Below are positions 28,786 to 48,606 of a stretch of 64,000 bases of DNA, one piece after another. Position numbers and translations under genes: made by a program. Location of the stretch: the NCBI GenBank assembly GCA_900315065.1, contig OMXQ01000006.1, positions 7,100-71,099 of the forward strand, read 5' to 3'. This DNA comes from an uncultured Erysipelotrichaceae bacterium (lineage in GTDB: Bacteria > Bacillota_I > Bacilli_A > Erysipelotrichales > Erysipelotrichaceae). Position 1 is the stretch's first letter. Each line of letters starts with the position of its first letter. The notes below the pieces were generated by a model, which saw nothing but the letters and a program-made list of their open reading frames with translations, did no database searches and was not told the DNA's origin.

Positions 28786-28798
28786 AATGCGTCACCTC

Positions 28799-30229: not shown

Positions 30230-30840
30230 TCTTCTGTTTCTCCTTTCAATTTGTTGAGAAGTCTTGCCGCCCATGTCTTGCGCTGCTTGTTCCGGATTTC
30301 TTCAAGATCGCGCTTTCTGGCGGATACGGCTGTACTTTCGTACGCCGGGAATGTACATATCGAAACTTCGTAGAGCTTCACTTCTTTGATCGTCCAGTGT
30401 GCGGATCCATCCTCGCGGAATTCGGCTTCCTCGTCGAGAATGTCAAAGCCGAAAGAGCACTGGTTAACGTCGCCGCGCTCAACGCGGGCCAATGCGTTCA
30501 TGGCGTCGCTATCGTTCGGATTGATGATGACGCTACCCCATAAGCCGTGCGAATCCACCCGGAGTTCACCGGTATGCGCTGCGGTTCTGCCTAAAACCAG
30601 CCTCGTTTCGTGGTCGATCAAGAAGCGCACGTCGTCCGCGATCGCGTTGTCAAACGCGTGCGGGTCGATGCTTTCTGTCAGCCCTGGCCACATTTCGTAT
30701 GTATCGCCGAATACAGCGAAGTAGCCCTCTATGCGGCGCTCTCCGTTTTCTCCGGCGTTATCCCTGATCTGAAACTGTGACGAAACCGTGCGCATCTGCC
30801 TTCCGGTTCTCGCCGTAATCTTTTCCTGTTCTCTTGGCAT
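30226..30840 (-). CDS. HK97-type prohead maturation protease
   Basis: IEGYFAVF, FLIDHE, RGDVNQCSFGF, LYEVSICTFPAY. Confidence 0.92.
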   Translation of the reverse strand: MPREQEKITARTGRQMRTVSSQFQIRDNAGENGERRIEGYFAVFGDTYEMWPGLTESIDPHAFDNAIADDVRFLIDHETRLVLGRTAAHTGELRVDSHGLWGSVIINPNDSDAMNALARVERGDVNQCSFGFDILDEEAEFREDGSAHWTIKEVKLYEVSICTFPAYESTAVSARKRDLEEIRNKQRKTWAARLLNKLKGETEE

Positions 30841-30844
30841 TTGT

Positions 30845-32062
30845 TTATTCTCCTTCGCTGTCCTGAATCAGCTTTTTCTGTTTCCCGCTCATTGCTACCG
30901 GGATATAGTTTTCCAGCACCTTGCGTTCGTCCAATCCGTCAACTGGTGACATACCCAGACGGTCGCGTACTTCATTTCCGGAAACGTCGCCGCGGTCCTG
31001 CAGCATGCAGAACACTTTCGCGATTGTTTCCATATCGTAATCAAGCAAAGACAGCACGTTGAAACGCAGGTACCAGTTCGGCGAAAGTATCAGCTTCCTG
31101 GTCATTTCCTGCTCGATCGTCTTTGCCAGCGTCCGCAATTCTGTGTTTACAAAATTGTTCCATTCTGCACGGTTAAACTGCCCGATTCCCAAAACAAAAG
31201 GCGGCACGCCAAGAATGGCCGCCACCGTTCTTTTGTCAAGCTCCACGGTGTCTTTTATTGCCAGGTCCGCCAGGCTCAGCGGTCTGATCTGTTCGACGCT
31301 GAACTGATCTGCAGGAATAAGCCACGGCTCGCCGGCTTCTGCCGTATCGATGTAGCTTTCCAGCAGCTTTTTGCGGCCTTCCGGGCTTGCGAATTCTTCC
31401 GTTAAGCCGTCCACCTTCACGATAACGGAAGGCTTCCACTTGCTTTCCATGAATCCTTTTTCTGTAGCCGCTGCCTGTCGCAGATTTCCGGCCACGTCTT
31501 TAAGTACCACCTGCATGCCACGGCCGCGCCATGGCTGGTATGGATCCGGATTGTAAACGAAATGCAGAATGTCGTCCGGATCACGTGCCACGCCGTCAAT
31601 GTTTACAGTATAGGCATATCCGGAAGCGTCCGGCACAAGCGTGACACGGTTCGGCGGAATTGGATCCATGCTGTCGAGTAGTCCTTTTTTTGTGTTCACC
31701 CTTACGATGCTGTTACCTTTTCCGTATAGCAGCATGTTCATAATTACGATCGTCATAAAATTAACCCGGGTCATATACTTGTTCGGGTTTATGTCGATCA
31801 TCCGGGAAAGCTCGTTCTGTATCCGGATGTCGCCGTTGTCCGTGTTGCTCATCAAGTGAATAGTCATAGATGCCAGCAGGGATGCCTTTTTATAACAACC
31901 TGTTACGATTTCCGGTATCTGGTCCAGCCGCGTGTATCCGGATACGCAGAGCGTTTCGTATGCTTCCTTTGAAACAAGGAAACCGACCGAGTTTTTGGCG
32001 GCTGGTGTCGTCACTGTTTCCGTGTCTTCTCGTTTGTTGTATTTTCTTCTTCTTTTGCTCAT
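30845..32062 (-). CDS. Portal protein, HK97 family
   Basis: NMLLYGKGN, DDILHF, AAILGVPPFVLG, NEVRDRLGM. Confidence 0.92.
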   Translation of the reverse strand: MSKRRRKYNKREDTETVTTPAAKNSVGFLVSKEAYETLCVSGYTRLDQIPEIVTGCYKKASLLASMTIHLMSNTDNGDIRIQNELSRMIDINPNKYMTRVNFMTIVIMNMLLYGKGNSIVRVNTKKGLLDSMDPIPPNRVTLVPDASGYAYTVNIDGVARDPDDILHFVYNPDPYQPWRGRGMQVVLKDVAGNLRQAAATEKGFMESKWKPSVIVKVDGLTEEFASPEGRKKLLESYIDTAEAGEPWLIPADQFSVEQIRPLSLADLAIKDTVELDKRTVAAILGVPPFVLGIGQFNRAEWNNFVNTELRTLAKTIEQEMTRKLILSPNWYLRFNVLSLLDYDMETIAKVFCMLQDRGDVSGNEVRDRLGMSPVDGLDERKVLENYIPVAMSGKQKKLIQDSEGE

Positions 32063-33801
32063 TCTTCACCCCACCAGTTTTTCGCGCGACTGCTGCGCGC
32101 CATATTGTCCAGGTATCTGCAGCACCCGAATACCGATGCGTCGAAAAGATCGATGCGGTCATGCTCTCCGATTTTCTGGTATTGCACCATATCGTCGGTT
32201 TTTTCGATCGCGTGCACGTTCGAAATACAGTATTCGAATGCTTCGGAATGTAAATAGTAAAAGCGCCCGTCTTTTACGCGCTTCTCAATATGCCGGAAGC
32301 CTTCCGATTTCACGTAATAATATTGCGGCTGGTCTACCGTTTTGAACCCTGCGGCTTCCATGGCCATATAGAATTCCCGTGCGAATTTCCGGTCATGGCC
32401 AAGCTGCACAATTTTAAAGCCCAGCTTCCGCATGAATATAAACCAGTTCACAATATCAGAAATGTTCACCGTGGCGCCGCCGCAGATGGTCAGCCATCCA
32501 TCATCCTGCCAGCCGAAAAGCGGGATATTATCCTCGTCAGCTTTCCGCGCCGCTTGTGTAACCGGGAAGAATCCGTGCGTTATCACTATGTCGACGTCTT
32601 CCTTTTCGTAATGTCCATAAATCGCGCCGGCTGTCAGATCATAAAGTCGGGAAAGATCGGCGCCGCCGTACCACTTGATCGGCAGTTTCGCCAGCTGTTC
32701 AATGGTCCAGCTGTATTTCTGATCACTGGCTTTGAATTCTTCGAGGTCAAACCATGCCCGCATCGCGCTTGTATAAATGTCCAGGCTTCGTGATAAGAAG
32801 TCCTTCCGCTGCTGCGGGTCATTCTGCGCCTGCAGCGATTCCTGCAGCATGTCTGCCGGCCTGATCGTCACGCCATAAGACGGGTTCGCCTTTTCATGCT
32901 GTGCCGGGTCCGTATAGTCCACATTTCCCTTGTCGTCCTGATCTGCTTTTGACACAAAACAGAAAAGCGAATCATCCTGCACCGTTCCGTCCAGAATCTT
33001 TTCAGCATACTGCAGACGGCCATAACAGAAACTGTTCACATTGTCGCCGGCCGTAGTAATTCCGATCATCAGCTTGTTGGTATATGCCTTCATGGCTTCC
33101 TTGAATCGGTTGTATTGTGCCGGTTTCTTCATCGCCTGGATTTCGTCAGCGATTGCGATATTACAGTTAAAGGAATCCTGCGTATCCGGGTTGGCTGCCA
33201 GTGCTTCGATTTTTATTGAACCGTCCGGTCGCCCTTCGCTGTCATAAAACTGATACGTTATTGAATGCTCCGCGTTGTTATTCAGCACCCGGAATTCGTC
33301 AATAATACCCTGATATGTCAGCGTGTACAGGATCGCGTCGAATGATTCAAGGGACTGCTTTAAAGCGGCCGCAACAATGTAGATCGTGGCTCCGGATTTT
33401 CTTTCCAGCATTGCCAGACCAAAAGCCAGGCCGGCCACGAATGTGGTTTTCCCGTTCTTTCGCGGGATAAAGATAAAGGCTTCTTTATATCGGCGTTCCT
33501 TCGTGCCTTTGTAATAAAAGCCCACAAGGTTGTAAACGATAAAGCGTTGCCAGGGCTGCAGCATCAGCGGCTTGTTTACCAGCGGCGTGCCGTCCAGTGC
33601 TTCGCCTTTCTTGTGAACCATGAATTTCTGAATAATGTTTATCACAAGGTCCGGAGAACTCGGCCGCAGTTCTATGTCGTCGCGCTTCAAGTCTTCCAGG
33701 AAGCGCCGGCACTCTCGCACATTTCCGCCGGCTTTGATCTTTCCGGATACTACGTCCTCAGCGTACTGTAGGACTTCCTTTTTGAAAGATTTAGCAGTCA
33801 T
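32059..33801 (-). CDS. terL: Terminase large subunit
   Basis: IPRKNGKT Walker A, IADEIQ Walker B, GITTAG, YGGADLS, RIDLFDA nuclease motifs. Confidence 0.95.
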   Translation of the reverse strand: MTAKSFKKEVLQYAEDVVSGKIKAGGNVRECRRFLEDLKRDDIELRPSSPDLVINIIQKFMVHKKGEALDGTPLVNKPLMLQPWQRFIVYNLVGFYYKGTKERRYKEAFIFIPRKNGKTTFVAGLAFGLAMLERKSGATIYIVAAALKQSLESFDAILYTLTYQGIIDEFRVLNNNAEHSITYQFYDSEGRPDGSIKIEALAANPDTQDSFNCNIAIADEIQAMKKPAQYNRFKEAMKAYTNKLMIGITTAGDNVNSFCYGRLQYAEKILDGTVQDDSLFCFVSKADQDDKGNVDYTDPAQHEKANPSYGVTIRPADMLQESLQAQNDPQQRKDFLSRSLDIYTSAMRAWFDLEEFKASDQKYSWTIEQLAKLPIKWYGGADLSRLYDLTAGAIYGHYEKEDVDIVITHGFFPVTQAARKADEDNIPLFGWQDDGWLTICGGATVNISDIVNWFIFMRKLGFKIVQLGHDRKFAREFYMAMEAAGFKTVDQPQYYYVKSEGFRHIEKRVKDGRFYYLHSEAFEYCISNVHAIEKTDDMVQYQKIGEHDRIDLFDASVFGCCRYLDNMARSSRAKNWWGEE

Positions 33802-34537
33802 ACGGCTGCACCTCATCGAAAGAACGATCAAACGATATAATGCCGTCGAAAATTTCTTTATACCAGTGTGCCAGTTCTGTATCTGTCGTGATTACTGTCT
33901 GCTCTGTTCTCGGGTTTGTATTTACGTTCGCGCTGGATTCTATAACGGCGTCAAAACGATCTCCAAGCAAAACCATGATCTTGGAATGATTCCGGAAGAT
34001 GCACAAGCGGCCGCCGTATTTCTTTTCCAGCGCCACAACGGCTTCATATTCTGCCGTGTATGATCCGCGGAAGATTTCGCCGCAGTAAAAATCCACGCGG
34101 TCGATATATCCGTATTTCAGCCAGTGTTCTATTTCCGTTACGTCTTCCATGGCCATACACCACGTGGATATAAACGCGTACCGGATGTGCTGCTGTTTTA
34201 CGACGGCCCTAAAATATGTCAGGCTGTCAACGTCTCCCCAGCTCATGCAGTGATATGAAACGCCAGGCTCAAAATGCCAGGGCAGTTCTTTTTCCAGATT
34301 GGCTTCGGATAGTATGCGGCGCATTTTATGGCCGGATATTGTTTTCTTAACCTTTACGCTGCTGTTTAACTCCTGTTTTTGTAACGGCGTCAGCTCGTCG
34401 CCGTCGTCTTTCTTTTCCGGCTCGATCTCGTATGAGGTTCCGCCGGCGCCATCGTTGAATATGTAATTATCCAAGGAAGGCGCAGTATTCAGAAAATCAT
34501 CCAGCGACGGGATGATAGCTTCTTTCTTTCTGCTCAT
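33791..34537 (-). CDS. Phospholipase D-superfamily (HxK...SxN) protein between terS and terL
   Basis: RNHSKIMVLL-x7-ESSANVNTNPRTE; translationally coupled on both sides. Confidence 0.6.
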   Translation of the reverse strand: MSRKKEAIIPSLDDFLNTAPSLDNYIFNDGAGGTSYEIEPEKKDDGDELTPLQKQELNSSVKVKKTISGHKMRRILSEANLEKELPWHFEPGVSYHCMSWGDVDSLTYFRAVVKQQHIRYAFISTWCMAMEDVTEIEHWLKYGYIDRVDFYCGEIFRGSYTAEYEAVVALEKKYGGRLCIFRNHSKIMVLLGDRFDAVIESSANVNTNPRTEQTVITTDTELAHWYKEIFDGIISFDRSFDEVQPYDC

Positions 34538-34893
34538 TCGCTCAGGTCTTTAAGGATATCGCCAAAACCGCGTTTCTGTTTCTTCATGCTGTTTTCGTCG
34601 ATCCGTTTCAATCCGGCAGGAGTTAAGCCGAGGTCGCGCCAGTAGGCCAGCGCTGTTTTCTCGCATGCGTCGATAATCAAAAGTGCCGGATTTCTTTCCA
34701 GGTTCTTGGCACCGGCTTTGTTTGTATGAACAACCACCGGTTTTCCGCCTGTCTGCTTGTATTGTTCCAGCGCGTCGTCGCGTCTGGCTAGAATGTCCGC
34801 CAGCTGCGCGATCGGTATATCAAAGTACGGCCTGTAGGTTCCGGCTTCCTCGCATGCGGCTTTTATTTTCTTTTTCCATCCGTTTTTCTTCAT
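34534..34893 (-). CDS. terS: Terminase small subunit, P27 family
   Basis: GTYRPYFD, HTNKAGAKN, NPAL, LGLTPAGLKRI. Confidence 0.88.
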   Translation of the reverse strand: MKKNGWKKKIKAACEEAGTYRPYFDIPIAQLADILARRDDALEQYKQTGGKPVVVHTNKAGAKNLERNPALLIIDACEKTALAYWRDLGLTPAGLKRIDENSMKKQKRGFGDILKDLSE

Positions 34894-34912
34894 GCCGTCC
34901 CCTTTCTGTTGT

Positions 34913-36166
34913 TTAATTTGAGTTAGATAACCGCCGGACGATCTCTTTTTCCCGCTCGGATAGATCCCACTTGTATGCCGTAGCCTTTTCAGCGGCGGCC
35001 TTTTCAGCGGCGGCCTTTTCGGCGGCGGCCTTTTCGGCGGCGGCCTTTTCGGCGGCTTTCTGTTCAGATATCAGATAACCGTTTCCGAATATGGCCTTGC
35101 CGTATTCTTTCTGCATGTCCAGCGCGCTGATCCGCTCCGTTTCTGATAAGCTGGCGGAAAACTGCACGCCGTGTTTGCTCAGGTATTGAAGGCCGGCAGC
35201 TGTCACTACATAATCCGGATATGAATATTTCGGCAGCTCCGTTCTGTTCTGCTTTCGGTTTTCTTCGTCCGCAGCCTTTACAGCTTCGTAAAGGTCCGGC
35301 GCCGATCGGAAGCGTTTCCCGTCTTCCAGGTTTGTAATAAATGATGTTGCGACGACGGCTCCGTTTTCATATGTAACCGGCGCACCGACGACAACGGCAC
35401 AGGAAGAAGAAGAAGAAGAAAAGATGGTCAGCGACGGTGCGAAAAGAAAAAAGCGGATATTCCGCTCCGTGTAAAATCGCACGATTTCCGCCAGAATCGA
35501 AAACGGCGGATTGTCCATCACGATGCAACCAGGCGGGTATTTTTCGTTTGTATAGTCCCCCCCCGGATAGAACGGCCGTATGAACGTCGCCGGGTTCACA
35601 TTGTACTCATTCTGCACCCATCCGGATATTGCATTGTACACGATCGCCGGCGTATAACAGTCGTCCGTTGTTTTCTTTTGTTCGAATTTATCCACGAAAT
35701 TGTTATATTCTTCGTTTCCGTCTTCGTGGCTTTTTCCTTCCTGTTCTCTGTCTTTGAACCATTCGTTATCGGCCTGCAGTTTATCCGGATCGAAAGCGAA
35801 AAGGCTCATATCGATATCTGTTATTTCCGCCAGTTCTTCGCCAAGCAGCTGCAGATCCCAGCAGGCAAGCTCTGCCGTTTTGTTATCGGCAAGCCTGAAC
35901 GCCTTTATCTGTTCATCGCTCAGATCGTCAGCTATGACGCAAGGCACGGTTTTAAGTCCCAGCCGGCTAGCGGCTTTTAGCCTGGTATGTCCGGCAACGA
36001 TTACATTGTTCCGGTCAATGACGATCGGTACCTTAAATCCGAATTCTTTTATACTGGCGGCCGTCGCATCCACTGCCGCGTCGTTCTTTCGCGGGTTTTT
36101 CGCGTACGGTATAAGCTCCGTAATATTTACGTCGTATATCTGCATTTCTGGTCCTTTCTCAGCCAA
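34913..36166 (-). CDS. ParB-like N-terminal domain fused to a putative N6-adenine DNA methyltransferase
   Basis: PYAKNPRKN...FGFKVPIV...IVAGHTR ParB motifs; DDCYTP and DNPPFS motifs. Confidence 0.75.
   Translation of the reverse strand: MAEKGPEMQIYDVNITELIPYAKNPRKNDAAVDATAASIKEFGFKVPIVIDRNNVIVAGHTRLKAASRLGLKTVPCVIADDLSDEQIKAFRLADNKTAELACWDLQLLGEELAEITDIDMSLFAFDPDKLQADNEWFKDREQEGKSHEDGNEEYNNFVDKFEQKKTTDDCYTPAIVYNAISGWVQNEYNVNPATFIRPFYPGGDYTNEKYPPGCIVMDNPPFSILAEIVRFYTERNIRFFLFAPSLTIFSSSSSSCAVVVGAPVTYENGAVVATSFITNLEDGKRFRSAPDLYEAVKAADEENRKQNRTELPKYSYPDYVVTAAGLQYLSKHGVQFSASLSETERISALDMQKEYGKAIFGNGYLISEQKAAEKAAAEKAAAEKAAAEKAAAEKATAYKWDLSEREKEIVRRLSNSN
34983..35057 (-). repeat. Five tandem 15-bp repeats encoding (AAEKA)n
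   Basis: GCCTTTTCRGCGGCG x5, in frame. Confidence 0.95.
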
Positions 36167-36262
36167 TACCCCCTCGGCTTCAAAATCCGGCGCACTTGGA
36201 AATTTTGACCCGCGCCATTAAGCAAGCCGTTTTAACTCCGCCGCGGGGCGGGGGGGATACTG
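36167..36262. other. Probable cos/packaging region
   Basis: Non-coding gap between HNH and the packaging operon with CCCCCCGCCCC and GGGGG runs; HNH plus P27 terS layout typical of cos phages. Confidence 0.5.
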
Positions 36263-36541
36263 TTAGAAGCGGCGCAAGTGTCCGCGCTCGTTCGCGGCTC
36301 TGATCTTCTCCGGATGTTGCTTGTTATGGCATGAATGGCACAGCGATATCAGATTGCTGTCGTCCAGCGCAAGCTCCGGCCATTCATCAAAGTGTTTTAT
36401 ATGGTGCACTTCCCACGCATCAACATGCCGGCCGTATCGTTTGCACAGCTGGCATTCGTAACCGTCACGGCGCAGGATAGCACGGCGTTTCGCTTTCCAT
36501 TTTGCTGAATTATAAAATTCTTCAGCTGCTAAACTTTTCAT
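36263..36541 (-). CDS. HNH endonuclease (terminase-associated)
   Basis: CQLC...EVHHIK...NLISLCHSCHNKQH. Confidence 0.9.
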   Translation of the reverse strand: MKSLAAEEFYNSAKWKAKRRAILRRDGYECQLCKRYGRHVDAWEVHHIKHFDEWPELALDDSNLISLCHSCHNKQHPEKIRAANERGHLRRF

Positions 36542-36718
36542 GTTTTCACCTATCGAATTAAAAACACAGCCGGGCGTGATCGCTGTTATACGAAAGGAGG
36601 CGGCTTGCAGAAAACTAATAAAAGACAAGCTCTTTATTTATTCACTCCCGGCTATGCCCGGCCAAAAATAAAGCCGCACGTTATCCCCTTCGTGCGGTTC
36701 TATTTCCAGTTACGCGCA

Positions 36719-37192
36719 TTATATCACAGGTTTGTCTATTGCCGCGGCAACTTTTGCGTATCTCAGCAGGATATCGTTCTTCTTTTTCCGGATCGCTTCC
36801 TTCGAATAGTTCACGCGTTCTCCTATCAGCCAAAGCGGCAAGCGTTCATCATAATATGCGCACACGATCTCTATTTCTTCCGGCGTGCACTCACTCTGCA
36901 GAAAGCTGGCAAGCTCGTACAATACAGCTTCCGACGCTCTGTATTTAGTGGCCGTCTCTGTTTCTTCGCTTATCAGCTCCGCAATATTACAGTGATATAT
37001 CACGGTGCCGCGCTGGTATTTTGCTTCTTCCGGATCGCGAATTGCAGGACTTCGCACCGTTCCTTTCAGCTGTTCCGCGATCTCGTCCAGCCTGTCGCCA
37101 TATTTCAGCAGCATGCTGAAGTGATAGCTTACAGACCTGAATACACCGTCAGCGTACCGGATCATTTCCTGATCTTCATCCGTGTAAATCAT
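36719..37192 (-). CDS. Putative late transcriptional activator (ArpU/RinA-like position, C-terminal HTH)
   Basis: LWLIGERVNYSKEAIRKKK HTH-like segment; last gene before the packaging region, followed by a terminator-like hairpin. Confidence 0.55.
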   Translation of the reverse strand: MIYTDEDQEMIRYADGVFRSVSYHFSMLLKYGDRLDEIAEQLKGTVRSPAIRDPEEAKYQRGTVIYHCNIAELISEETETATKYRASEAVLYELASFLQSECTPEEIEIVCAYYDERLPLWLIGERVNYSKEAIRKKKNDILLRYAKVAAAIDKPVI

Positions 37193-37593
37193 TCGTTATT
37201 CCATCCTTTGAAATAGATCTCCACGTTGTCGATATCTTTACGGTTTACTGTTATCACCGTGCCGGAATCATCCGGAACAATAATGCCTGTGCCAGATTTC
37301 AGCTTGTCATACTGCGATAATTCTTTTTTCAGCTGCCGGATTTCTTCGCGATATCCTTCGTTCTGGCGGCTCAGCCTTCCGATCAGATGTTCCTGTTCTT
37401 CTGCATTCTGCACTTTTTCTTCCAGAATCCGGATATGTTCGGCGCGTGCTTTAATTTCCGTTTCCATGCTTTTAATTCTCTCGCGGTACTGGTTTATTTC
37501 CGCTTCCTGGTAAGCGATCGCCTGATCTGGCGTGATTATTCCGCGGCCGTGGCCGATTCTTCGCATGATCTCTGCGACGTCCATTTCATCCAT
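37189..37593 (-). CDS. Coiled-coil hypothetical protein
   Basis: In operon, ATGA-coupled. Confidence 0.6.
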   Translation of the reverse strand: MDEMDVAEIMRRIGHGRGIITPDQAIAYQEAEINQYRERIKSMETEIKARAEHIRILEEKVQNAEEQEHLIGRLSRQNEGYREEIRQLKKELSQYDKLKSGTGIIVPDDSGTVITVNRKDIDNVEIYFKGWNNE

Positions 37594-37726
37594 TTTTCCG
37601 TTCTCCTTTACTTATGTCTTCAATCAGCACAATGGCAATAACGAATATCAGCCCGATGGCCATAATCAGGCCAAGCACCGCGCCCAAAACAAGCAGATAA
37701 TATTCGATGTGTGATATTACCATCAT
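37586..37726 (-). CDS. Small single-TM protein (46 aa)
   Basis: MMVISHIEYYLLVLGAVLGLIMAIGLIFVIAIVLIEDISKGERKNG, translated by hand; fills the gap. Confidence 0.55.
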   Translation of the reverse strand: MMVISHIEYYLLVLGAVLGLIMAIGLIFVIAIVLIEDISKGERKNG

Positions 37727-38280
37727 GCTGATTTCCCTTCTATTGCGATTTTCGCCGGTTCCGCAACAAGCGCCACGTTTTCCGGCTTATTCATCGGCAG
37801 ACCTTTCAGCTGTTCCCGGCGTGCCTTTTTAAGTCCTTCGTAAGCCTTTACGAATTGCGTTTTCTGGAATCCGTTAACCTCTGCACTGGTTAAATCGTAC
37901 GCGAATGTTTTCATTTCAGCCGGCGACGTCACGGCGCGGATTTTTTCGGGCAGCTGTTCCCAGGCTTCACGCGCGCTTTCGTAAGATCCAAGTTGGCAGA
38001 ATGCTTTCCGGTAGATTTCCCAGGCACGCTCCGGCGTGTCTTCCTGGTCTTCCAGCGCTATGGCCATCTGTTCGCGGATATCTGCAGGCAGCGGCGCAAA
38101 GTGCATCGTCTGCATACAAATTTTCACCGCCGGCATTACCATTTCGAACGGCTCCGGGAATAACTGCTGCCAGATTCTCGCTTCCGTGTCCACGTCTTCA
38201 GCCGTCAGCCCATTGCTTGCGGTAATGTGATACGTCGAACGGATCATAGCCAGAATCGTTTTCGTTTCCTTCAGGTTCAT
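37723..38280 (-). CDS. Replicative helicase loader/inhibitor (G39P-like)
   Basis: MNLKETKTILAMIRSTY...FAPLPADIRE; directly after replication initiator. Confidence 0.7.
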   Translation of the reverse strand: MNLKETKTILAMIRSTYHITASNGLTAEDVDTEARIWQQLFPEPFEMVMPAVKICMQTMHFAPLPADIREQMAIALEDQEDTPERAWEIYRKAFCQLGSYESAREAWEQLPEKIRAVTSPAEMKTFAYDLTSAEVNGFQKTQFVKAYEGLKKARREQLKGLPMNKPENVALVAEPAKIAIEGKSA

Positions 38281-39143
38281 TTTTTTCTCCATTCATTTCG
38301 TTAATAAGTGCCTGAATATACGGGTTTCGCGTCTTTTGCGACGTTTCTTCGTCTTCCCAGCGCTTCCCGTTTATCCAGGTCGCAGGATACGGGATATACC
38401 GCGGATCGATGTTCTGCCAGTCCCGGCTTATGGCATTATTCAGCCCGGCCATGATCCGCCGGAATTCGTCGGCACTGGTGCATACCTTCCGGAACGCTTT
38501 TTCCGCCGCTGCTTTAGCCTTGTGCTTCGGGTAGACTGTCCAGAATTCTGAAAACCATTTTTCTGCATCAGTCAGCAATTCAGCGTCAACACTCTCACCC
38601 GTATATGTGTTTCTATTCTTAATACACTCTATTTCTTCATTGTTTCTATTAAATAAAGATGGGGTGCTTTCCGACTGCGGGATTTCGCCCGCATTAGCGC
38701 GGGATTTCGCCCGCGGTAAATCTTCCGACTGCGGGATTTCGCCCGCATTAGCGCGGGATTTCGCCCGCATTAGCGCGGGATTTCGCCCGCGGTAAATCTT
38801 CCGACTGCGGGATTTCGCCCGCATTAGCGCGGGATTTCGCCCGCGGTAAAATGCCCTGATATTGTTCATAGTTAAGTATGATAATTTTCGACATTCTCCC
38901 TGCCGGTAAAATCTGTATTTGCTGCAGCTGTTCAAGTTCTGTCAGATACTTGCTTATCGTTTTATGGTCCAGGCTGGTTTCTCTTTCGATTTCACGGCGC
39001 GACGTAACGAAAACTCCTCGTTCCGGTCCTTTCCATTCAGCGGAAAGAAGTAAATGCAGCCAAAAGCCAAGTCGTGACATATCGTGCCGGTATTCCCAGC
39101 CGTCTATTTTTCTGTCGATCTTTATATAACCTTTTTCGCTCAT
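38198..39143 (-). pseudogene. Phage replication initiator, frameshifted by an extra 22-bp iteron unit
   Basis: N-terminal half (38748-39143, GYIKIDRKI wHTH) and C-terminal half (FSEFWTVYPK...YIPYPATWINGKRWED) are in different frames; 946-22=924 nt gives one 307-aa ORF. Confidence 0.85.
38677..38844. repeat. Origin iteron array: 7 copies of GCGGGATTTCGCCCGC
   Basis: Copies at 38677, 38699, 38731, 38753, 38775, 38807, 38829 with 6- or 16-bp spacers; AT-rich stretch adjacent (38600-38660). Confidence 0.9.
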
Positions 39144-39198
39144 GTTGCTTTCTCGTAAGCTCCGGTGCCGCCTATAATAAACGGCACCGCGCTTTCCT

Positions 39199-39366
39199 TT
39201 ACTTTCCTGCTTTCAGGTCTCTTTCAAGCTGGCGCTTTCTCCGGTTCAGCTTTTCCAGTGCCCTGCGCAGGTCCTGCCGGCGCTTGTGGCTGCGTGTCAT
39301 TGCCAAGCCTTCCTGCGTTTCTTCGATCCGCTGCTTTATCATGTTCAGTTGTTCATTCGTAGTCAT
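39199..39366 (-). CDS. Basic coiled-coil hypothetical protein
   Basis: MTTNEQLNMIKQRIEE...; in operon. Confidence 0.55.
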   Translation of the reverse strand: MTTNEQLNMIKQRIEETQEGLAMTRSHKRRQDLRRALEKLNRRKRQLERDLKAGK

Positions 39367-39481
39367 GATCAACCCCTGCCCGCAATATTGCAGGCACGAC
39401 AATCATCATGAAGATGTTGCCGGCCACGAATCCGGCGGTGGCTCCGATCAATAAGCCTGCCGAAAATTTAATAATCTGCAT
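39353..39481 (-). CDS. Small single-TM protein (42 aa)
   Basis: MQIIKFSAGLLIGATAGFVAGNIFMMIVVPAILRAGVDHDYE, translated by hand. Confidence 0.5.
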   Translation of the reverse strand: MQIIKFSAGLLIGATAGFVAGNIFMMIVVPAILRAGVDHDYE

Positions 39482-39500
39482 TTCTAAGGATCCTCACTTC

Positions 39501-39974
39501 CTAAAATGGCAAGTCGTCCGGATTTACCACTTCGCCGGTTTCTTCATATGCCCAGCGTGCTATTTCATCCGGCGTTGCCGCCTGTACTTCCTGCCGCTTT
39601 TTGCTAGCAGACGGTGTTCTGCTTCGGTTCGCTGTATTTCCACTGCTGGCGGCTGTTTTTGTGGCTGTTTGCAGGACTTCCACGCGTTCTGCCACGATCT
39701 CCGTTATGGTTTTCTCCGTGCCATCTCTGCCGGTATACGATCTAACCTGTATACGGCCTTCAACACCGATCAGGTCGCCTTTTTCGGCATGATCGCAGAT
39801 ATAATCTGCAGACTGCCGCCAGGCTTGTACGTTAATCCAGTCGGTATCCTGTTCGCCTTCCTTCGCGTACGGCCGTTTGACGGCCAGAGAAAAGGAACAT
39901 GCGCTCAGGCCGCTTGTGGTCTTCCTAAGCTCCGGATCGCGGCCAAGCCTGCCGGATATGCTAGCGTGGTTCAT
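39501..39974 (-). CDS. ssb: Single-stranded DNA-binding protein
   Basis: SGRLGRDPELRKT, VEGRIQVRSY, C-terminal DDLPF. Confidence 0.93.
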   Translation of the reverse strand: MNHASISGRLGRDPELRKTTSGLSACSFSLAVKRPYAKEGEQDTDWINVQAWRQSADYICDHAEKGDLIGVEGRIQVRSYTGRDGTEKTITEIVAERVEVLQTATKTAASSGNTANRSRTPSASKKRQEVQAATPDEIARWAYEETGEVVNPDDLPF

Positions 39975-40137
39975 CTTTCAGCAGATCCTTTTCGTGCACG
40001 TATGACGTTTTCCCGTCCGGGAAAATTACGGCATACTTAGCTCCGGAGTTCAGCCCGGTAATGGTTCCGATTACTTCGGCGCGTACATACACGGTATCGC
40101 CGCGGTCGAATGTTTTCTTTGCTGCTTTTTCTTCCAT
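39961..40137 (-). CDS. Hypothetical protein
   Basis: MEEKAAKKTFDRGDTVYV...; AAGGA SD. Confidence 0.5.
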   Translation of the reverse strand: MEEKAAKKTFDRGDTVYVRAEVIGTITGLNSGAKYAVIFPDGKTSYVHEKDLLKDEPR

Positions 40138-40141
40138 GATC

Positions 40142-40276
40142 TTATTTTTCCTTTCTTCGTATGAATTTAGGCGCGTCCATAAGCCGGCGTGCGTCTGCAA
40201 GCGCCTTTCTGTATGCAAATGCATGCCTGCGTAATTCTTCGCTTTTACAATGCTTCGGTTTCTTCTTTTTGCTCAT
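40142..40276 (-). CDS. Small basic hypothetical protein (44 aa)
   Basis: MSKKKKPKHCKSEELRRHAFAYRKALADARRLMDAPKFIRRKEK, translated by hand; fills the gap. Confidence 0.4.
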   Translation of the reverse strand: MSKKKKPKHCKSEELRRHAFAYRKALADARRLMDAPKFIRRKEK

Positions 40277-40538
40277 TCTCTTTTCTCCAATCTTCAATCA
40301 GAAATTCAGCCATATAACCGATTTCGTAATAGTTGGCTTCACGTCTGAACCACTCCCGTATAAATTCGAACGGGATCACGTCCGACGGCTTGATCTGCCG
40401 GACAACTTCCTGCGCATATACAATGGCATCGGCCTGCCGGATCGCTTCTTTGCTACAGTTGCACCCGCGGCGCTTTTTTTCGATTTTCTGCAGGATTTCC
40501 AGCGCTCTGGTGCGGTCTACATATTCGGCTTTACTCAT
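40245..40538 (-). CDS. Hypothetical phage protein
   Basis: MSKAEYVDRTRAL start typical of phage early proteins. Confidence 0.6.
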   Translation of the reverse strand: MSKAEYVDRTRALEILQKIEKKRRGCNCSKEAIRQADAIVYAQEVVRQIKPSDVIPFEFIREWFRREANYYEIGYMAEFLIEDWRKENEQKEETEAL

Positions 40539-40659
40539 TCTTATGGTTTCCTTTCCAGCGCAGGAATGCTTCTGTGGCTTGAATTATGAATTCAGCAGCC
40601 AGCATGCACGGCGGGATCATGATAACGGCGGTAATAGCCATCATTTCAAGCATGAACAT
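40531..40659 (-). CDS. Small hydrophobic protein (42 aa)
   Basis: MFMLEMMAITAVIMIPPCMLAAEFIIQATEAFLRWKGNHKNE, translated by hand. Confidence 0.45.
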   Translation of the reverse strand: MFMLEMMAITAVIMIPPCMLAAEFIIQATEAFLRWKGNHKNE

Positions 40660-41098
40660 GTTCTGGTTTCTCCATTTCTTCCGGGCCGTCGTATCTTATC
40701 AAGGTGTCAACATGCGGAAACGTTCCATACAGCTTCCGTACGTTCAGCTCGATAACGTGCGAATCGTCAGTGAAAGCTATATTGTTAAGCGAATCCAGGA
40801 TGGATTTTGCTATATTGTCCGCGTCCGGCTTCACAACCGGATACACGCCGCCTTCTTTCCATTGCTGCCGCTTTTTCTTCGTCCAGCTTTTTGGAATCGG
40901 GAAATATGCCGATATCTCCGCCCGGATCGGCCCGGTAATAGGCACGTGGCGCGGGTATGTCTGCGTAAAGTACAGCCGCACAAGATTTTCGTATTCTGCA
41001 GTATCCTTCGGCGTAAAGGCGTGGCCGGTCTTTGTTACTCTTGGCCGGCCTTTGCCTTTCGGTGCGCCTGGTACGGTGAAAAACAGGCACTTTTCCAT
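40646..41098 (-). CDS. rusA: RusA-family Holliday junction resolvase
   Basis: PKGKGRPR, KPDADNIAKSILDSLN, FTDDSHV. Confidence 0.9.
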   Translation of the reverse strand: MEKCLFFTVPGAPKGKGRPRVTKTGHAFTPKDTAEYENLVRLYFTQTYPRHVPITGPIRAEISAYFPIPKSWTKKKRQQWKEGGVYPVVKPDADNIAKSILDSLNNIAFTDDSHVIELNVRKLYGTFPHVDTLIRYDGPEEMEKPEHVHA

Positions 41099-41099
41099 A

Positions 41100-41426
41100 T
41101 CAGAATAATTTCCCCTGCCCCTTCGGCACGTTCGGATCTCTGATCATCCTTTCGCCGGTATCCTGATCGGTGTAAATCATTAACGGCGTATGCTGTTTCT
41201 TGGCGTTCTGCGTTTTTATCTCAGTGGATATCTGCGTTTTATAACTGCAAGCAGAATCGTCGAATACTACTGGCACATGAATAATCAGCTCAGCTTTCGC
41301 GGCATCGAAGCCAGGCCGTGCTGTATAGCTTTTTATCATCGTCAAACATTCGTCTGCGTTCTTTACGATTTCCGGATCTGCTTCCAGCAGTTCCATAAAT
41401 GTGGCTTTTACATCAAAACTAATCAT
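41100..41426 (-). CDS. Hypothetical protein
   Basis: In operon with SD; ends GQGKLF. Confidence 0.55.
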   Translation of the reverse strand: MISFDVKATFMELLEADPEIVKNADECLTMIKSYTARPGFDAAKAELIIHVPVVFDDSACSYKTQISTEIKTQNAKKQHTPLMIYTDQDTGERMIRDPNVPKGQGKLF

Positions 41427-41443
41427 TTTTCGATTTCCCTTTC

Positions 41444-42286
41444 TTACAACAGGCTGTCGTCGCCTTCGATTGCTTCTTCTGCGGCCTGCTTTGTTACTGT
41501 TTCAGCGTCCTGGATCACTTCGCCGGTATCAGCGTCAATTTCGATAACGTCTGCCGGCACGGTCGTCATATCGTCCGCTACTTCGTGTTTAATCGTTTCG
41601 TCTGCAGAAACGGCGGCGGCTACGTCTGCAGTTTTCGGTGCATATTTCAGCAGCTGTTTTAATACGGTCTTCTTGGCCATGCTGTCGAACGCCGTATTCC
41701 ATGGCGTCCGTGCGCTGGAAGCCTTTACGTACTGCTTGCGGAAGCTCTCCATTTCGTCTTTGCTCATGACAACAAACGACTGCCCGCCATTCACCAATGT
41801 ATATGTGGCATAATATGCGATCGGCTCGCCGCGGTTCACCATAGCCGGCTTGTGTGTCAGCTTCGGATCAAGGCCAAGTTCATACTCGAAAACATCATTT
41901 TCGTATACCGTTTCAGCAGTAATCCGCTTGTATTCCTTCGTGCGGTAGCATAAATCGATAAGTCCCTGATATCCGGTCTGAAACTGGCATTCCATCCGGC
42001 CGTGGTTGTTGTACGGGATCAAATAAGCCTGCCCCAGCGGCGTATTAGGCTCAAGGCCCAGCTGTGCCGCCTGCATCATAGCCGCCAGAAAGCTGGTCGG
42101 CGTGCATGCCTGCAGATCTGCATTGTTTGAAATTGCCGAAAGCGTCATGCGTGTGAAGCGCTCCGGAGTGATTACTTTCGGCAATGCCTTTGCGATCGCG
42201 CCGCCTTTCATCATGTCGTTTACATATTTCTGCAGGGTCTTTTCCGGCGCTGTTTTATTCACCAGCGTATTAGTTACTTTTGCCAT
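41444..42286 (-). CDS. recT: RecT-family single-strand annealing recombinase
   Basis: AAQLGLEPNTPLGQAYLIPY, QFQTGYQGLIDL, FDSMAKKTVLKQLLKYAP. Confidence 0.93.
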   Translation of the reverse strand: MAKVTNTLVNKTAPEKTLQKYVNDMMKGGAIAKALPKVITPERFTRMTLSAISNNADLQACTPTSFLAAMMQAAQLGLEPNTPLGQAYLIPYNNHGRMECQFQTGYQGLIDLCYRTKEYKRITAETVYENDVFEYELGLDPKLTHKPAMVNRGEPIAYYATYTLVNGGQSFVVMSKDEMESFRKQYVKASSARTPWNTAFDSMAKKTVLKQLLKYAPKTADVAAAVSADETIKHEVADDMTTVPADVIEIDADTGEVIQDAETVTKQAAEEAIEGDDSLL

Positions 42287-42644
42287 GTTCTGTTTTCTCC
42301 TTTTCCATGTCTCTGAATGCGTCAATAATCGCCGCATATACTGCTTTGTAAATGTCTGCCTGCGTCAATCCGGTTTTTACAAGATCAAGCTGCAGCTGTT
42401 CCGGATCACCGATTTTCTGCATGTCCTTTTCCGGCTCCGCCGGCTTTTTCATCTGTTCGCAATCAATGCCATATTTCTGCATGATCTGCTTTGCGATCGC
42501 TACGGCCATGCTGTTTCTGCTTATTGCATTGCTGATATAGCTGCTACCGCACCCAAGCTCGCGGGACAGGTCCGCGAAATTATTGACGCCAGCGGCGGCC
42601 AGCGCTTCTTTAAGCGCCGGTCCGTAAAATGTTACCTGTCTCAT
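42270..42644 (-). CDS. Putative HTH DNA-binding protein
   Basis: NFADLSRELGCGSSYISNAISR. Confidence 0.55.
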   Translation of the reverse strand: MRQVTFYGPALKEALAAAGVNNFADLSRELGCGSSYISNAISRNSMAVAIAKQIMQKYGIDCEQMKKPAEPEKDMQKIGDPEQLQLDLVKTGLTQADIYKAVYAAIIDAFRDMEKEKTEHGKSN

Positions 42645-43618
42645 CCTTGCGGGACCTCAATCTTCCAGAATTTAATGCCGTTTGCTTTCATGAAGTCCGC
42701 CAGCGCGACGATCTGTTCACGGGTTCCCTGTACTTTCATGGCACGGGTGAAGATCTGCGGTTCCTGTGGCTGCTCGATCGGTGCTGCCGGCTCTTGCGGT
42801 TTTGCCGGTTTGGCGGCACGGGCTGCAGCTCGCTGTTCTTCATAAGCTCTGCGCTGTGCTTCGCGCTCCTGACGTTCTTTTTCCATTCTTTCTTTAAGCT
42901 CAGCGGCCTGCCGATCGGCTTCTTTCTTTTCTTCCCAGGCGGAAAGCGTCTGGCCAAGGTCTAAGCATTTCAGATATTCAGGCACGCAGAAATTAAGCTG
43001 GTCAATATCCGGAAAGTGTGAAATTGTATCCAGGTCACGGTCGATCTGCGCCGCCTTTTCCTGAAGCGCTTTCTGCCAGGCTGAATCTTTGCAACCTTTC
43101 AGCAGAAATTTTTCGTCAAAAACGGAATCAATCGGGATTTTATACAGCTTCGCGCCGTTTTCATCCCACCACGTTGTTATTCTTGCCTTCTTGTCGTCTT
43201 TCTCTTTCTGCTCGTAGGATTTCACCTGCTGATCTATGCCGTAGACGGCTTCATCAATTTTTGCCGTCAGCTGCTTAACCTGCGCCGCGAAATCGTCGTA
43301 TGGCTCGCAGAATTCTTTCTTCAATTCGATCTTCCGGTCATTGATCGCTTTTTTGAAATTATTAAGGTTTGCACGGTCTTTCTTCGCCAGGTCGATCTGA
43401 TCATCCGTATACTGCAGGTTTTTGTATTTCTGCAGGCGGGCATCCAGCCCTCTATTCAATTCTTCGAAATTCCAGGAAAGTAAGCCGATCCGTTTTTCGT
43501 AGATCTCCACTCCTAAAGGTTTGTTCGTCTCTGTCATTGTTTTCTGCCTTTCTTTTTCTTCTTCATAGGCGTATTCGAATAAATTGCGTTCGCCTACTTT
43601 TATTTCGTTTTTTCTCAT
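42641..43618 (-). CDS. DUF1351 family protein (start uncertain: 43618 or 43537)
   Basis: SWNFEEL...YTDDQIDLAKKDRANLNNFKKAINDRKIELKKEFCEPY. Confidence 0.7.
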   Translation of the reverse strand: MRKNEIKVGERNLFEYAYEEEKERQKTMTETNKPLGVEIYEKRIGLLSWNFEELNRGLDARLQKYKNLQYTDDQIDLAKKDRANLNNFKKAINDRKIELKKEFCEPYDDFAAQVKQLTAKIDEAVYGIDQQVKSYEQKEKDDKKARITTWWDENGAKLYKIPIDSVFDEKFLLKGCKDSAWQKALQEKAAQIDRDLDTISHFPDIDQLNFCVPEYLKCLDLGQTLSAWEEKKEADRQAAELKERMEKERQEREAQRRAYEEQRAAARAAKPAKPQEPAAPIEQPQEPQIFTRAMKVQGTREQIVALADFMKANGIKFWKIEVPQG

Positions 43619-43620
43619 GG

Positions 43621-44310
43621 CTAAATCACCGGAAGATACAGCGGCGGCTCTGTGTCTGTTTGCACATATTTGTTCCAAAAGTCCAGCACGCCATTCTTTA
43701 CGTATTCCAGTTCACCGATAACGTCGGACCGTTCAATGTGATATATGCGCAGCTGGCTGTAATCGTCGTCGTATGTCAGCTCCGCGATCAAGTCCACGAA
43801 ATCGAACCCGGTAACATTCATCCCGTGCAATACCTGAATGAAATAATTCTCGGGGATCTGATCTTTCCATTTTTCACGCTGCAGCGACATGATCGGTGTT
43901 GCTGTCTTTACTTCCAGAATTCCGCAGCGGCCTGTATCAGTTTCCTGCAGCAGCCCGTCAGGACTGTACAGCAGGATCGGATCCGCTTTGTTCTGCAGGA
44001 CAACATCCGGCATGTAATGCACGTCAACCCGGCCTTTTCTTTTGAGCTGGTACAGCCGGCGGATGTGATCTTCTGCTTCCTGCCCGTAAATAACGCGCTC
44101 ATTGTTCGAGATATCCGGCGCTTTAATCCGGTGTGTCTTCAGCTGCCACAACTCCAGGTTGCTGCGCCACGGATTCCGGTTTATGGCGGCGCTCGCGTCC
44201 GATCCGCCGATGCCATGCACGCGGCCTTTGAGCCATTCCGCACGATTTTTGTATTTATGGACGTCATAAACGGAATTATCGGCGTACAGTGATTTCTTGT
44301 ATCTCAGCAT
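43621..44310 (-). CDS. YqaJ-like viral recombinase/exonuclease
   Basis: EWLKGRVHGIGGSDAS, YSPDGLL, ILEVKT, YFIQVLHGM. Confidence 0.9.
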   Translation of the reverse strand: MLRYKKSLYADNSVYDVHKYKNRAEWLKGRVHGIGGSDASAAINRNPWRSNLELWQLKTHRIKAPDISNNERVIYGQEAEDHIRRLYQLKRKGRVDVHYMPDVVLQNKADPILLYSPDGLLQETDTGRCGILEVKTATPIMSLQREKWKDQIPENYFIQVLHGMNVTGFDFVDLIAELTYDDDYSQLRIYHIERSDVIGELEYVKNGVLDFWNKYVQTDTEPPLYLPVI

Positions 44311-44579
44311 TCTGGATCTTCCTTTTCCGGGTACGTATAACCGATGGCATGCTCTGCGTATCTGATCCGGTTTTTCAGCTCTGTAATTTCAATGGCCAGC
44401 GAAATGAAATGCGTGTCGTCCATGCCGGCTTTCGCGTTCAGCTGTTTCTTGTTCTGCTTTGCCAGCACTTCCACGCGCTGCATGCGTTTGTTCATTTCAC
44501 GCATATACATGACAAGCACATACCATCCGCAAAAAACGATCGATATCAGCAGAAAATAAAGAATATATTTCAGGATCAT
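44304..44579 (-). CDS. Membrane-anchored coiled-coil hypothetical protein
   Basis: N-terminal TM; in operon. Confidence 0.55.
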   Translation of the reverse strand: MILKYILYFLLISIVFCGWYVLVMYMREMNKRMQRVEVLAKQNKKQLNAKAGMDDTHFISLAIEITELKNRIRYAEHAIGYTYPEKEDPEC

Positions 44580-44812
44580 GCCATTCCGCCTTTCTCGAAC
44601 GGCCTATGCAGCACAGATATATGTCCGCCGTCTCCGCCGTTTTGTTCCACAAATTTAAACGCATCAGCCAGCACGCCCAGCACATCCGGCTTTTCTATGC
44701 AGATTGTTGCCAGCGATGCAAATTCGACGAACAATTGTTCGCGGTCGTTTTCCGGCAGTCTTCCATATACCTGCCATGTTCCTTCTCCTGTTTTCTTTGC
44801 TTCAAAAATCAT
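44576..44812 (-). CDS. Hypothetical protein
   Basis: In operon, coupled to neighbours. Confidence 0.5.
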   Translation of the reverse strand: MIFEAKKTGEGTWQVYGRLPENDREQLFVEFASLATICIEKPDVLGVLADAFKFVEQNGGDGGHISVLHRPFEKGGMA

Positions 44813-45158
44813 CCGGGATCTCCATTTCTCCGGCCAGGATTGCCAGCGTTACCGGATCCACGTTCAATGCTTCCGGCCAGTCGTTGCGCAATTTAAGCAG
44901 ATACATGCGGGCTTTGAACGGTCCCATGCCGAACGGCAGCGGTTTATATTCCGGATCGCCCAGGTCTGTGATTATGTTCTGCAGGAATTCCTGGCTTATC
45001 TTATAGGCTGGTACAAAAATGTAACCAGGCAGCGGCGTGACGCCGTATTCTTCAAGGTTGAGCGTGCAGACTCCGTACGGGATATCGTCGTCCGTGTATG
45101 CACTTATTGCCATTGTTTTGTTTGAGGTGTAAACCTCGACCCTATATGTGTATTTCAT
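44802..45158 (-). CDS. Hypothetical protein (start at MKYTYRV)
   Basis: ATGA-coupled to upstream 48-aa ORF. Confidence 0.55.
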   Translation of the reverse strand: MKYTYRVEVYTSNKTMAISAYTDDDIPYGVCTLNLEEYGVTPLPGYIFVPAYKISQEFLQNIITDLGDPEYKPLPFGMGPFKARMYLLKLRNDWPEALNVDPVTLAILAGEMEIPDDF

Positions 45159-45301
45159 AAATCGATCCCCACAATAAACAGGAATACGCGCACATAGCAG
45201 TACAGGCCCATGAGAATGGCTGCCAGCATTTCGATACGGTCCAAGGCGTAGCGGATTTCCGGCCGTAAATGCCGGCACTTTGTTTTTCTAATTGTTGTCA
45301 T
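45155..45301 (-). CDS. Small membrane protein (48 aa)
   Basis: MTTIRKTKCRHLRPEIRYALDRIEMLAAILMGLYCYVRVFLFIVGIDL; AAGGAAGG SD. Confidence 0.55.
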   Translation of the reverse strand: MTTIRKTKCRHLRPEIRYALDRIEMLAAILMGLYCYVRVFLFIVGIDL

Positions 45302-45354
45302 TTTCCTTCCTTTCATTTCCTGCTAAAATGCAGGTGGCTTTTAATAAAAGCCGG

Positions 45355-45576
45355 TCAGTTCGGTGCTTCGGTCTTTTCCAGGGAATGAAGCGCCGTTCTT
45401 TTTCGTTCCGCTTTCCAGCGGGCAAATTCTTCCTGGATTTCCGGCCGGCGGAATTGTTCGCGGGTGATTTCGATCACCGCGCCGCATAATGCCTGCAGCT
45501 GTTCCGGCGGGATTTCCTCAAAACGGACAGGATCGCGAATATTTGCGTTCCTTTCTGCGTAATTTTCACGCGTCAC
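45355..45576 (-). CDS. Small hypothetical protein downstream of cro (start uncertain)
   Basis: ...IPPEQLQALCGAVIEITREQFRRPEIQEEFARWKAERKR. Confidence 0.55.
   Translation of the reverse strand: MTRENYAERNANIRDPVRFEEIPPEQLQALCGAVIEITREQFRRPEIQEEFARWKAERKRTALHSLEKTEAPN
45557..45571. promoter_or_regulatory. Operator copy GCGTAATTTTCACGC immediately downstream of cro
   Basis: 14/15 identical to the palindrome at 45817-45831. Confidence 0.65.
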
Positions 45577-45800
45577 AGTGTAAAAAAATAAACGCCGATT
45601 TCATCCTGCGGAATCTCAAGTGCGCTCGCCATCAGATGAATGTCCGATCGGCTCATTTCAACGGTGCCGGTAAGTCGCTGGTTTACCCACATGCGAGCTT
45701 TCCCGATTGCGTCCGCGAACGATTCCTGCGTATCGTACAATTCAGTGATCCGGCCGCGCAGTTTGTTGTTCTTGAATTCCGGTTTAAGCTGTTCGCTCAT
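45573..45800 (-). CDS. Cro-like HTH repressor (DUF739-like)
   Basis: NNKLRGRITELYDTQESFADAIG...IGVYFF; divergent from cI; AAAGGAG SD. Confidence 0.8.
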   Translation of the reverse strand: MSEQLKPEFKNNKLRGRITELYDTQESFADAIGKARMWVNQRLTGTVEMSRSDIHLMASALEIPQDEIGVYFFTL

Positions 45801-45816
45801 TGCGTTTCTCCTTTCT

Positions 45817-45866
45817 GCGTGATTTTCACGCATTCAAAATATACCTCTACGGATTAGCTATGTCAA
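45817..45866 (-). promoter_or_regulatory. Lytic promoter (TTGACA-17-TATATT) with operator GCGTGA-N3-TCACGC at 45817-45831
   Basis: -35 at 45866-45861, -10 at 45843-45838; perfect palindrome between start site and SD. Confidence 0.8.
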
Positions 45867-45970
45867 CACAAAAAGAAAAGAAAACCACGCAGAAAGTAAG
45901 CAAAAGCGTGAAAAAACGCGCTTTTCAGACAACATAATGCTATTATATTGGTGTAAAGGCGGTTGCGATA

Positions 45971-46336
45971 ATGTCAATATATAGCGAAAAATTCGGGAAA
46001 AAGCTCCGGCAGATAATGGAAGAAAAGAACATCCGGCAAGCTGATCTGGTACAGCGTACCGGCATACATCATGGAACAATAACGAATTACTACAAAGGAT
46101 TGTATATGCCACGCGGCGAAAAACTCACAAAAATAGCAAATGCCCTCAATGTCAGCGAAGCGTATTTATGCGGTTATTCGGATGAAGCTGCGCTGGATAA
46201 TTACTTGGACAATCTTTCCGAAGGCACAGCCGGTATTCTTGTGAGCGATCCGGAAGAAACCGCGGTTATTCAAGAGTATAGAAAAGCAGATGAGAAAACC
46301 CGCAAGGCATTGCGCGTTCTGCTTGGCTTGGAATAG
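45971..46336 (+). CDS. CI-like XRE family repressor
   Basis: LRQIMEEKNIRQADLVQRTGIHHGTITNY...IANALNVSEAYL. Confidence 0.88.
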   Translation: MSIYSEKFGKKLRQIMEEKNIRQADLVQRTGIHHGTITNYYKGLYMPRGEKLTKIANALNVSEAYLCGYSDEAALDNYLDNLSEGTAGILVSDPEETAVIQEYRKADEKTRKALRVLLGLE

Positions 46337-46344
46337 GAGAGAAT

Positions 46345-48490: not shown

Positions 48491-48526
48491 TTCTGTTGCA
48501 GTATGGTAATATATCAAAGCACTGCT

Positions 48527-48603: not shown

Positions 48604-48606
48604 TGT

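Follow-up and report, generated by a model that had tools for sequence, protein, structure and literature searches.

Replication origins within phage initiator genes

In bacteriophage lambda, ori-lambda lies inside gene O, between the regions encoding an N-terminal domain that binds the iterons and a C-terminal domain that recruits partner proteins. Several phased iterons are followed there by an AT-rich tract, and the N-terminal domain and the iterons change together while the C-terminal part stays constant. Another such arrangement is found in Bacillus phage SPP1, where the gene of the replisome organiser G38P holds an origin (oriL). The window described here, which is the whole 64,000-nucleotide stretch that was analysed, belongs to contig C78 in the draft genome (G000) of an uncultured Erysipelotrichaceae bacterium and includes a ~34-kb prophage. 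To judge from its sequence, the replication origin of this prophage very probably lies within the linker of its own initiator gene, which would make the element a further member, from rumen phages, of the long-known class of in-gene iteron origins. As deposited, the gene is frameshifted by an extra 22-bp unit among its iterons. This unit is very likely not biological, an artefact left by an assembler that joined scaffold pieces inside a perfect repeat array.

The locus resembles two groups of described systems, each in part. As in lambda O and its lambdoid and Stx-phage variants, the origin is predicted to lie in the initiator gene and between two protein domains; as in lambda itself, the iterons precede an AT-rich tract, and the N-terminal domain and iterons vary together while the C-terminal part is constant. 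Unlike lambda O, the protein has no match to Pfam Phage_rep_O (and no Pfam match at all at E values up to 10), and its match to the 'O-like' PHROG family phrog_678 is weak (4.8e-6, residues 4-287 of the 307-aa form). Lambda has four sites of ~19 bp, whereas the window has pairs of 16-bp palindromes in perfect 54-bp units with 22/32-bp spacing. Its host, again unlike that of lambda, lives in the rumen and has a GC content of 44.6%, and no lambda P-like loader was recognised at the window's prophage. With the replisome-organiser and DnaD-like initiators of Gram-positive phages the protein shares PHROG families 186, 2514, 270 and 9474, a winged-helix N-terminal domain and direct repeats within the gene. 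It differs from the DnaD-like initiators in matching no Pfam or NCBIfam family at threshold, be it as either fragment or as the 307-aa form, in having a candidate origin known from sequence, and in a C-terminal domain with the motif FW..YPKK..K..AEKAF, which is common to DUF1376/YdaU-like proteins only distantly.

The initiator gene and its iteron array as deposited

Seven exact copies of GCGGGATTTCGCCCGC are found on the forward strand, starting at 38677, 38699, 38731, 38753, 38775, 38807 and 38829, against 0.09 expected by chance; none of 100 shuffles held seven or more. They form a periodic array of 182 bases (38669..38850, - strand) made of seven 16-bp imperfect palindromes, GCGGG-CGAAAT-CCCGC, with centres 22 or 32 bp apart. 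Read in the sense of the gene, where I stands for the iteron GCGGGCGAAATCCCGC, the array consists of three 54-bp units TTTACC-I-GCTAAT-I-AGTCGGAAGA, the middle one carrying one additional 22-bp I+GCTAAT. The two iterons of a unit are thus spaced by 22 bp and successive pairs by 32 bp, and a perfect array of n units is 54n-2 bases long (160 for n=3). The extra iteron with its GCTAAT spacer is nominally 38753..38774 (- strand), which is also the single 22-bp gap relative to a nearly co-extensive contig (L001) discussed below. Any of the three tandem 22-mers at 38731-38796 could be counted as the extra one, and Tandem Repeats Finder reports 2.7 copies of period 22 at 38731-38790. No other 100%-perfect tandem array of at least 100 bp exists in the genome. 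Elsewhere in it, outside the window, ~3 kb of degenerate 66-67-bp tandem repeats with 64-82% matches (C30:18462-21439) are probably part of a repetitive protein-coding gene.

The deposited initiator gene (38198..39143, - strand) is 946 bp long, which is not a multiple of three. Its frame from 39143 stops at a TAA at 38750-38748 after 131 codons, and the resulting ORF (38748..39143, - strand) comprises the winged-helix, predicted DNA-binding N-terminal domain and the first repeat peptides. The remainder, made of the linker and the conserved helical C-terminal domain (38198..38752, - strand), runs on to 38198 in a shifted frame (frame 1). With a perfect three-unit array the gene would be 924 bp and encode 307 aa; indeed, removal of 38753-38774 in silico yields an open 307-aa frame that is, letter for letter, protein P0001 of other assemblies. 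The sequence-only reading had described all of this: seven iterons in 22- and 32-bp units, an extra 22-bp unit causing a frameshift and the stop after 131 aa, and a 307-aa initiator upon its removal. Exact iteron positions, reading frames, the deletion and the identity to P0001 bear it out as the content of the deposited sequence; the organism's own DNA is a separate matter.

Two ways in which the split gene might still yield an initiator were considered and rejected. Further 22-bp units do not restore the frame, as every GCTAAT brings up a TAA stop as soon as it is read in the shifted frame. A functional split initiator using an ATG restart inside the array would leave the domains unlinked, and no Shine-Dalgarno sequence precedes the candidate ATGs.

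The 307-aa form is matched by two PHROG families of replication initiation proteins, phrog_270 (1.4e-23, residues 32-264) and phrog_9474 (9.4e-20, residues 91-271), and also by the 'DnaD-like helicase loader' families phrog_186 and phrog_2514. The PHROG matches run across the frameshift and cover both halves. In an AF2 model built with ten relatives, residues 20-97 form a confident winged helix, residues 98-181, encoded by the iterons and the AT-rich DNA that follows, are disordered (pLDDT <50), and the C-terminal domain is helical. The model of the whole protein is poor (pLDDT 56.5) because half of it is disordered. Foldseek returned generic wHTH matches alone (E >=0.012), including the RepA_N plasmid initiators 4pql/4pt7, and a sequence profile search of the PDB reached MarR-like wHTH proteins at E >=0.09 at best. 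A blastn search of the phage collection with the gene gave no match, and the iteron pair was not found when viral_contigs, genome_contigs and JGI metagenome_contigs were scanned for exact copies. Among 200 genomes of the family, two distant homologues alone were found, and the homologue in a complete genome (L018) has no convincing internal iteron array.

The gene belongs to a replication and recombination module with the order YqaJ-DUF1351-RecT-RusA-SSB-initiator, followed by a small overlapping gene, as seen in L001. The SSB gene lies upstream of the initiator (39501..39974, - strand; Pfam SSB, 2.9e-30). The downstream gene (37723..38292, - strand) encodes 189 aa, or 174 aa if it begins at 38247, the start called in relatives, and is a candidate helicase-loader partner; it matches phrog_9804, a family of unknown function, at 1.3e-19 and, weakly, the 'helicase loader' phrog_2289 at 1.4e-4. 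This gene overlaps the 3' end of the initiator gene by 50-95 bp in another frame (38198-38292). By the integrase end of the prophage, 106 bp at 14041-14146 have a counterpart of 92% identity at the opposite end (48502-48604; L001:540-642), a pair consistent with an att-flanking duplication with its core at 14219 / 48447.

A candidate origin and its relatives

Directly downstream of the iterons lies an AT-rich tract (38600..38668) that encodes part of the disordered linker and is a candidate DNA-unwinding element. GC content falls from 60-63% within the array to 23% at 38600-38659; the genome as a whole has 44.6%. Six or seven exact 16-bp sites thus lie inside the protein's own coding sequence, in the linker between its two domains. 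The lambda-O-type in-gene origin proposed in the sequence-only reading is well matched by this layout: the repeats are very probably origin iterons, and the locus would be lambda-O-like in function. By analogy, the winged-helix N-terminal domain of the initiator would bind the iterons, its C-terminal domain would recruit a loader or helicase, and the origin would fire from within the gene.

Relatives with other iteron sequences preserve the same geometry. L014 has five TGGTAGGGAATTCCACCAC sites spaced by 32, 22, 32 and 22 bp; in L015 and L016, whose sequences differ again, each of two 54-bp units carries a pair of half-sites 22 bp apart. The 54-bp unit and the 22/32 spacing are therefore kept in all three despite different iterons, and all arrays of these relatives are in frame. 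The proteins differ in a corresponding way. Compared with P0001, the N-terminal domains of P0004 and P0005, which go with different iterons, are 72% and 38% identical, while their C-terminal parts are 95-96% identical; with P0003 included, the C-terminal part is 95-97% identical to that of the window's initiator. Among relatives, iteron sequence follows the N-terminal and not the C-terminal domain. This pattern suggests, on the model of lambda O, that the N-terminal domain and the iterons may act as one specificity module to which an exchangeable C-terminal domain is attached.

The swap is also apparent at the DNA level. When L015:1501-2370 and L016:1501-2376 are compared with 38198-39143 of the window, N-terminal domain and iterons are replaced as a block (72% and 38% identity), whereas identity is 95-98% over the last 157 residues of the protein and in the flanking genes. 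The initiator is thus a mosaic, with the boundary of a recombination module inside the gene, near the AT-rich tract.

The same phage in other assemblies

At least 11 further ENA assemblies contain the same phage, and outside the array their copies show 0-2 mismatches per ~6.5 kb. The most informative is L001 (ENA ERZ28615797, label STEW18-1_SAMEA104153976), the product of a different assembler. At 86,145 bp it is nearly co-extensive with C78 (86,259 bp), which extends 44 and 48 bp beyond it at the two ends, and over 20.9 kb (window 49143..28198) the two show 0 mismatches and a single 22-bp gap. They therefore represent the same strain and differ in the array alone; L001 encodes the intact, six-iteron, 307-aa initiator.

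Array lengths fall into two groups. Clean, in-frame arrays have 52 bases (L003, L004), 106 bases (L009-L013) or 160 bases (L001), corresponding to near-identical phage copies with 1, 2 or 3 clean 54-bp units. Aberrant arrays have 182 bases in the window, 182 in L007, 198 in L006 and 175 in L008. Fifteen arrays of the phage family were compared, and the window's is the only one that is clean yet out of frame; in the remaining out-of-phase arrays the junctions, at a limit of 99 bases, are of a kind that slippage does not produce.

The differences among one, two and three units may be a real in-frame polymorphism in origin and linker copy number, or a collapse to the shortest path through an assembly graph. 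For any k of 54-107, 106 bases is the minimal graph path. The true number of 54-bp units is uncertain for this reason: there are three in L001, every possibility is in frame, and clean arrays could be collapsed ones.

Probable scaffold joins within a perfect repeat

Genome G000 is a draft of 144 contigs in which six pairs of contig ends overlap by exactly 99 bp and the only runs of N are 13 and 51 long. These features therefore point to a de Bruijn graph with k=100 and to scaffolding by estimated distances. The contig ends that share 99-bp overlaps (C41/C74/C84, C75/C12/C130 and C117/C51/C88) are branch points left unresolved in the assembly graph; such ends show the k that was used and could guide manual joining.

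A perfect array of at least three units (at least 160 bases) is unresolvable at k=100 because it contains repeated 100-mers, and each flank-anchored unitig therefore stops exactly 99 bases into it. In the mechanism proposed here, the graph of an assembler with a largest k of 100 would break at these repeats, and the scaffolder would join the two unitigs by an estimated overlap (16 bases here) in place of the true one. The first piece would be kept whole and the second clipped, and a clip of 16 bases would put the join inside an iteron.

The model that was tested takes the first 99 and the last 99 bases of the array and clips t bases from one of the two pieces. It reproduces all four aberrant arrays exactly. 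In L006 both pieces are whole (t = 0); in L007 the left piece is whole and 16 bases are missing from the right one; in L008 the right piece is whole and the left one has lost 23; and in the window the right piece is whole and the left one has lost 16. Of all reaches between 60 and 139, 99 is the only one to explain two or more of the aberrant arrays, and it explains all four. The clipped unitig is always the second in the orientation of the record, whether the gene lies on the - strand (window), on the + strand (L007) or in a reversed record (L008); in C78 the right-hand unitig comes first because the gene is on the - strand. A clip of 16 bases is common to two of the four joins, which the proposed mechanism does not account for.

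For the window, the predicted join falls at 38767..38768. The 99 downstream-anchored bases (38669-38767) are whole, and the upstream unitig has lost 16, which leaves it with 83 (38768-38850). As the join (38768|38767) lies inside an iteron, its product resembles a clean extra 22-bp unit. Taken by itself, the window's allele fits unitig reaches of about 82-100, which is compatible with 99 and not diagnostic of it. The other three junctions are less ambiguous: I-A-CGGGCG in L006, I-ACTAAT-I in L007 and I-CGGGCG in L008 are all impossible products of slippage between iterons. A word diagnostic of the window's junction is AATGCGGGCGAAATCCCGCGCT, an iteron with GCTAAT on both sides, the legitimate contexts of an iteron being ACCGCGGGCGAAATCCCGCGCT and AATGCGGGCGAAATCCCGCAGT.

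These joins also bear on the main competing explanation, namely that the frameshift is a real and very recent inactivating mutation. By replication slippage or unequal exchange between neighbouring identical iterons, the array would have gained a 22-bp unit, or lost a 32-bp one if it once had four units, and the strain would carry a truncated initiator and a replication-dead prophage, domesticated or decaying. The window's junction, I-GCTAAT-I-GCTAAT-I, is as clean as slippage would make it, and a seven-iteron allele, having no repeated 100-mers, would be assembled faithfully at k=100. Yet the window's allele mirrors the join product seen in L007, with equal length and an equal 99/83 split, and L007 is itself marked as an artefact by one base. 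Window and L007 differ at a single position in 6,396 bp, the junction base at window position 38752, where L007 has A, the 99th array base of the left unitig, exactly as the join model predicts. Moreover, every assembly of the phage with 'scaffold_N' names and more than two units is aberrant at the 99-base limit, the otherwise identical L001 is intact, and the exact 131-aa product is on record solely from the window's own contig. A real mutation is therefore unlikely.

Three findings favour assembly error, which had been the first alternative of the sequence-only reading: the genome bears the mark of k=100, every aberrant allele decomposes into two pieces of that reach, and an otherwise identical contig has the intact allele. 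The window's junction, we infer, has no read support. What the organism carries is most likely the 307-aa gene, or one differing from it by another in-frame multiple of 54 bp, and the prophage initiator is most probably intact.

A plain error in the de Bruijn graph was rejected as the source: it is impossible at k >=21 because the word AAT-I-G is absent from a perfect array. It is this absence that throws suspicion on the scaffolding step. The assembler behind the window's genome is presumably IDBA-UD, which we take to have a default largest k of 100 and a join rule that shortens the second contig by the overlap it has estimated. The study to which the label of L001 refers made its single-sample rumen assemblies with idba_ud (PMC5830445) and binned contigs of at least 2 kb (PMC5830445, PMC6785717); the smallest contig of G000, at 2,115 bp, fits such a cut-off. 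Chen et al. 2020 (PMC7111523) report local errors, and incorrect numbers of repeats, as prominent in assemblies made with IDBA-UD. The window's case is like these in having the wrong repeat content at a join in a perfect repeat longer than k, and unlike the usual ones in that its join falls inside an iteron and mimics a plausible product of slippage.

Not every product of such joins is out of frame. L008:3294-3468 (ENA ERZ1062080, scaffold_770) encodes a 312-aa protein, P0036, that is present in NCBI/ENA and carries a duplicated RAKSR in frame. It is probably an artefactual database protein, because its array has the right 99 bases in full and a left piece short by 23.

Repeat number and replication competence

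The variation among assemblies invites a further explanation, a reversible, contingency-type switch in which frequent gain and loss of a 22-bp unit would toggle the initiator OFF and ON. Such a switch would set the replication of the prophage after induction, and the 131-aa fragment would serve as a dominant-negative binder of the origin. Since 22 bp is not a multiple of three and three tandem copies would be prone to slippage, the array has properties suited to this role, and it does vary between assemblies of an otherwise identical phage. These differences, however, track the type of assembler and the k-1 limit and not biology. Assemblies that can resolve the array show no clean out-of-frame allele, the relatives with other iteron sequences are all in frame, and nothing shows ON and OFF forms together in one sample. 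A contingency switch is accordingly extremely unlikely. In its broader form, in which a real slippage-prone 22-bp unit would let the in-gene origin double as a reversible ON/OFF switch of the prophage's replication competence, the idea is very unlikely. Under that reading, the OFF product (the wHTH and two repeat peptides) would still occupy the iterons. A milder version would have only the number of in-frame 54-bp units vary (1, 2, 3 or more), tuning origin strength and linker length. The domesticating mutation, the reversible switch and the dominant-negative fragment that the sequence-only reading had offered as alternatives find no support, as the out-of-phase arrays all carry the k-1 = 99 signature, and the comparison with related phages that it had called for speaks against a repeat-number switch.

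Least probable of all is a mixed population in the sampled rumen, with six- and seven-iteron alleles from which different assemblers chose different branches of a bubble. Two nearly co-extensive contigs that differ by 22 bp alone are what such a mixture could produce, provided that both, L001 and C78, come from one sample. The mixture faces the same objections as the real mutation, because it too needs a real seven-iteron allele, and the joins in L006, L007 and L008 show that the pipeline yields such products with no minority allele present.

Implications

The locus matters chiefly as a caution and for practical reasons. Perfect iteron arrays in phage initiator genes defeat k-mer assemblers, and the joins made within them can mimic slippage mutations. 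Such joins can create false pseudogenes in deposited MAGs as well as false in-frame variants such as the 312-aa P0036. A comparison of the longest periodic prefix and suffix of an array with k-1 requires no reads and flags these artefacts cheaply.

If the frameshift were true, the locus would be a neat case of an origin able to switch off its own initiator. With scaffold joining as the favoured source of the extra unit, what the locus would add is one more family of in-gene origins. Such origins have been familiar since lambda; in this family palindromic iterons are paired within 54-bp units, and the winged-helix domain is swapped as one module with the iterons it presumably binds.
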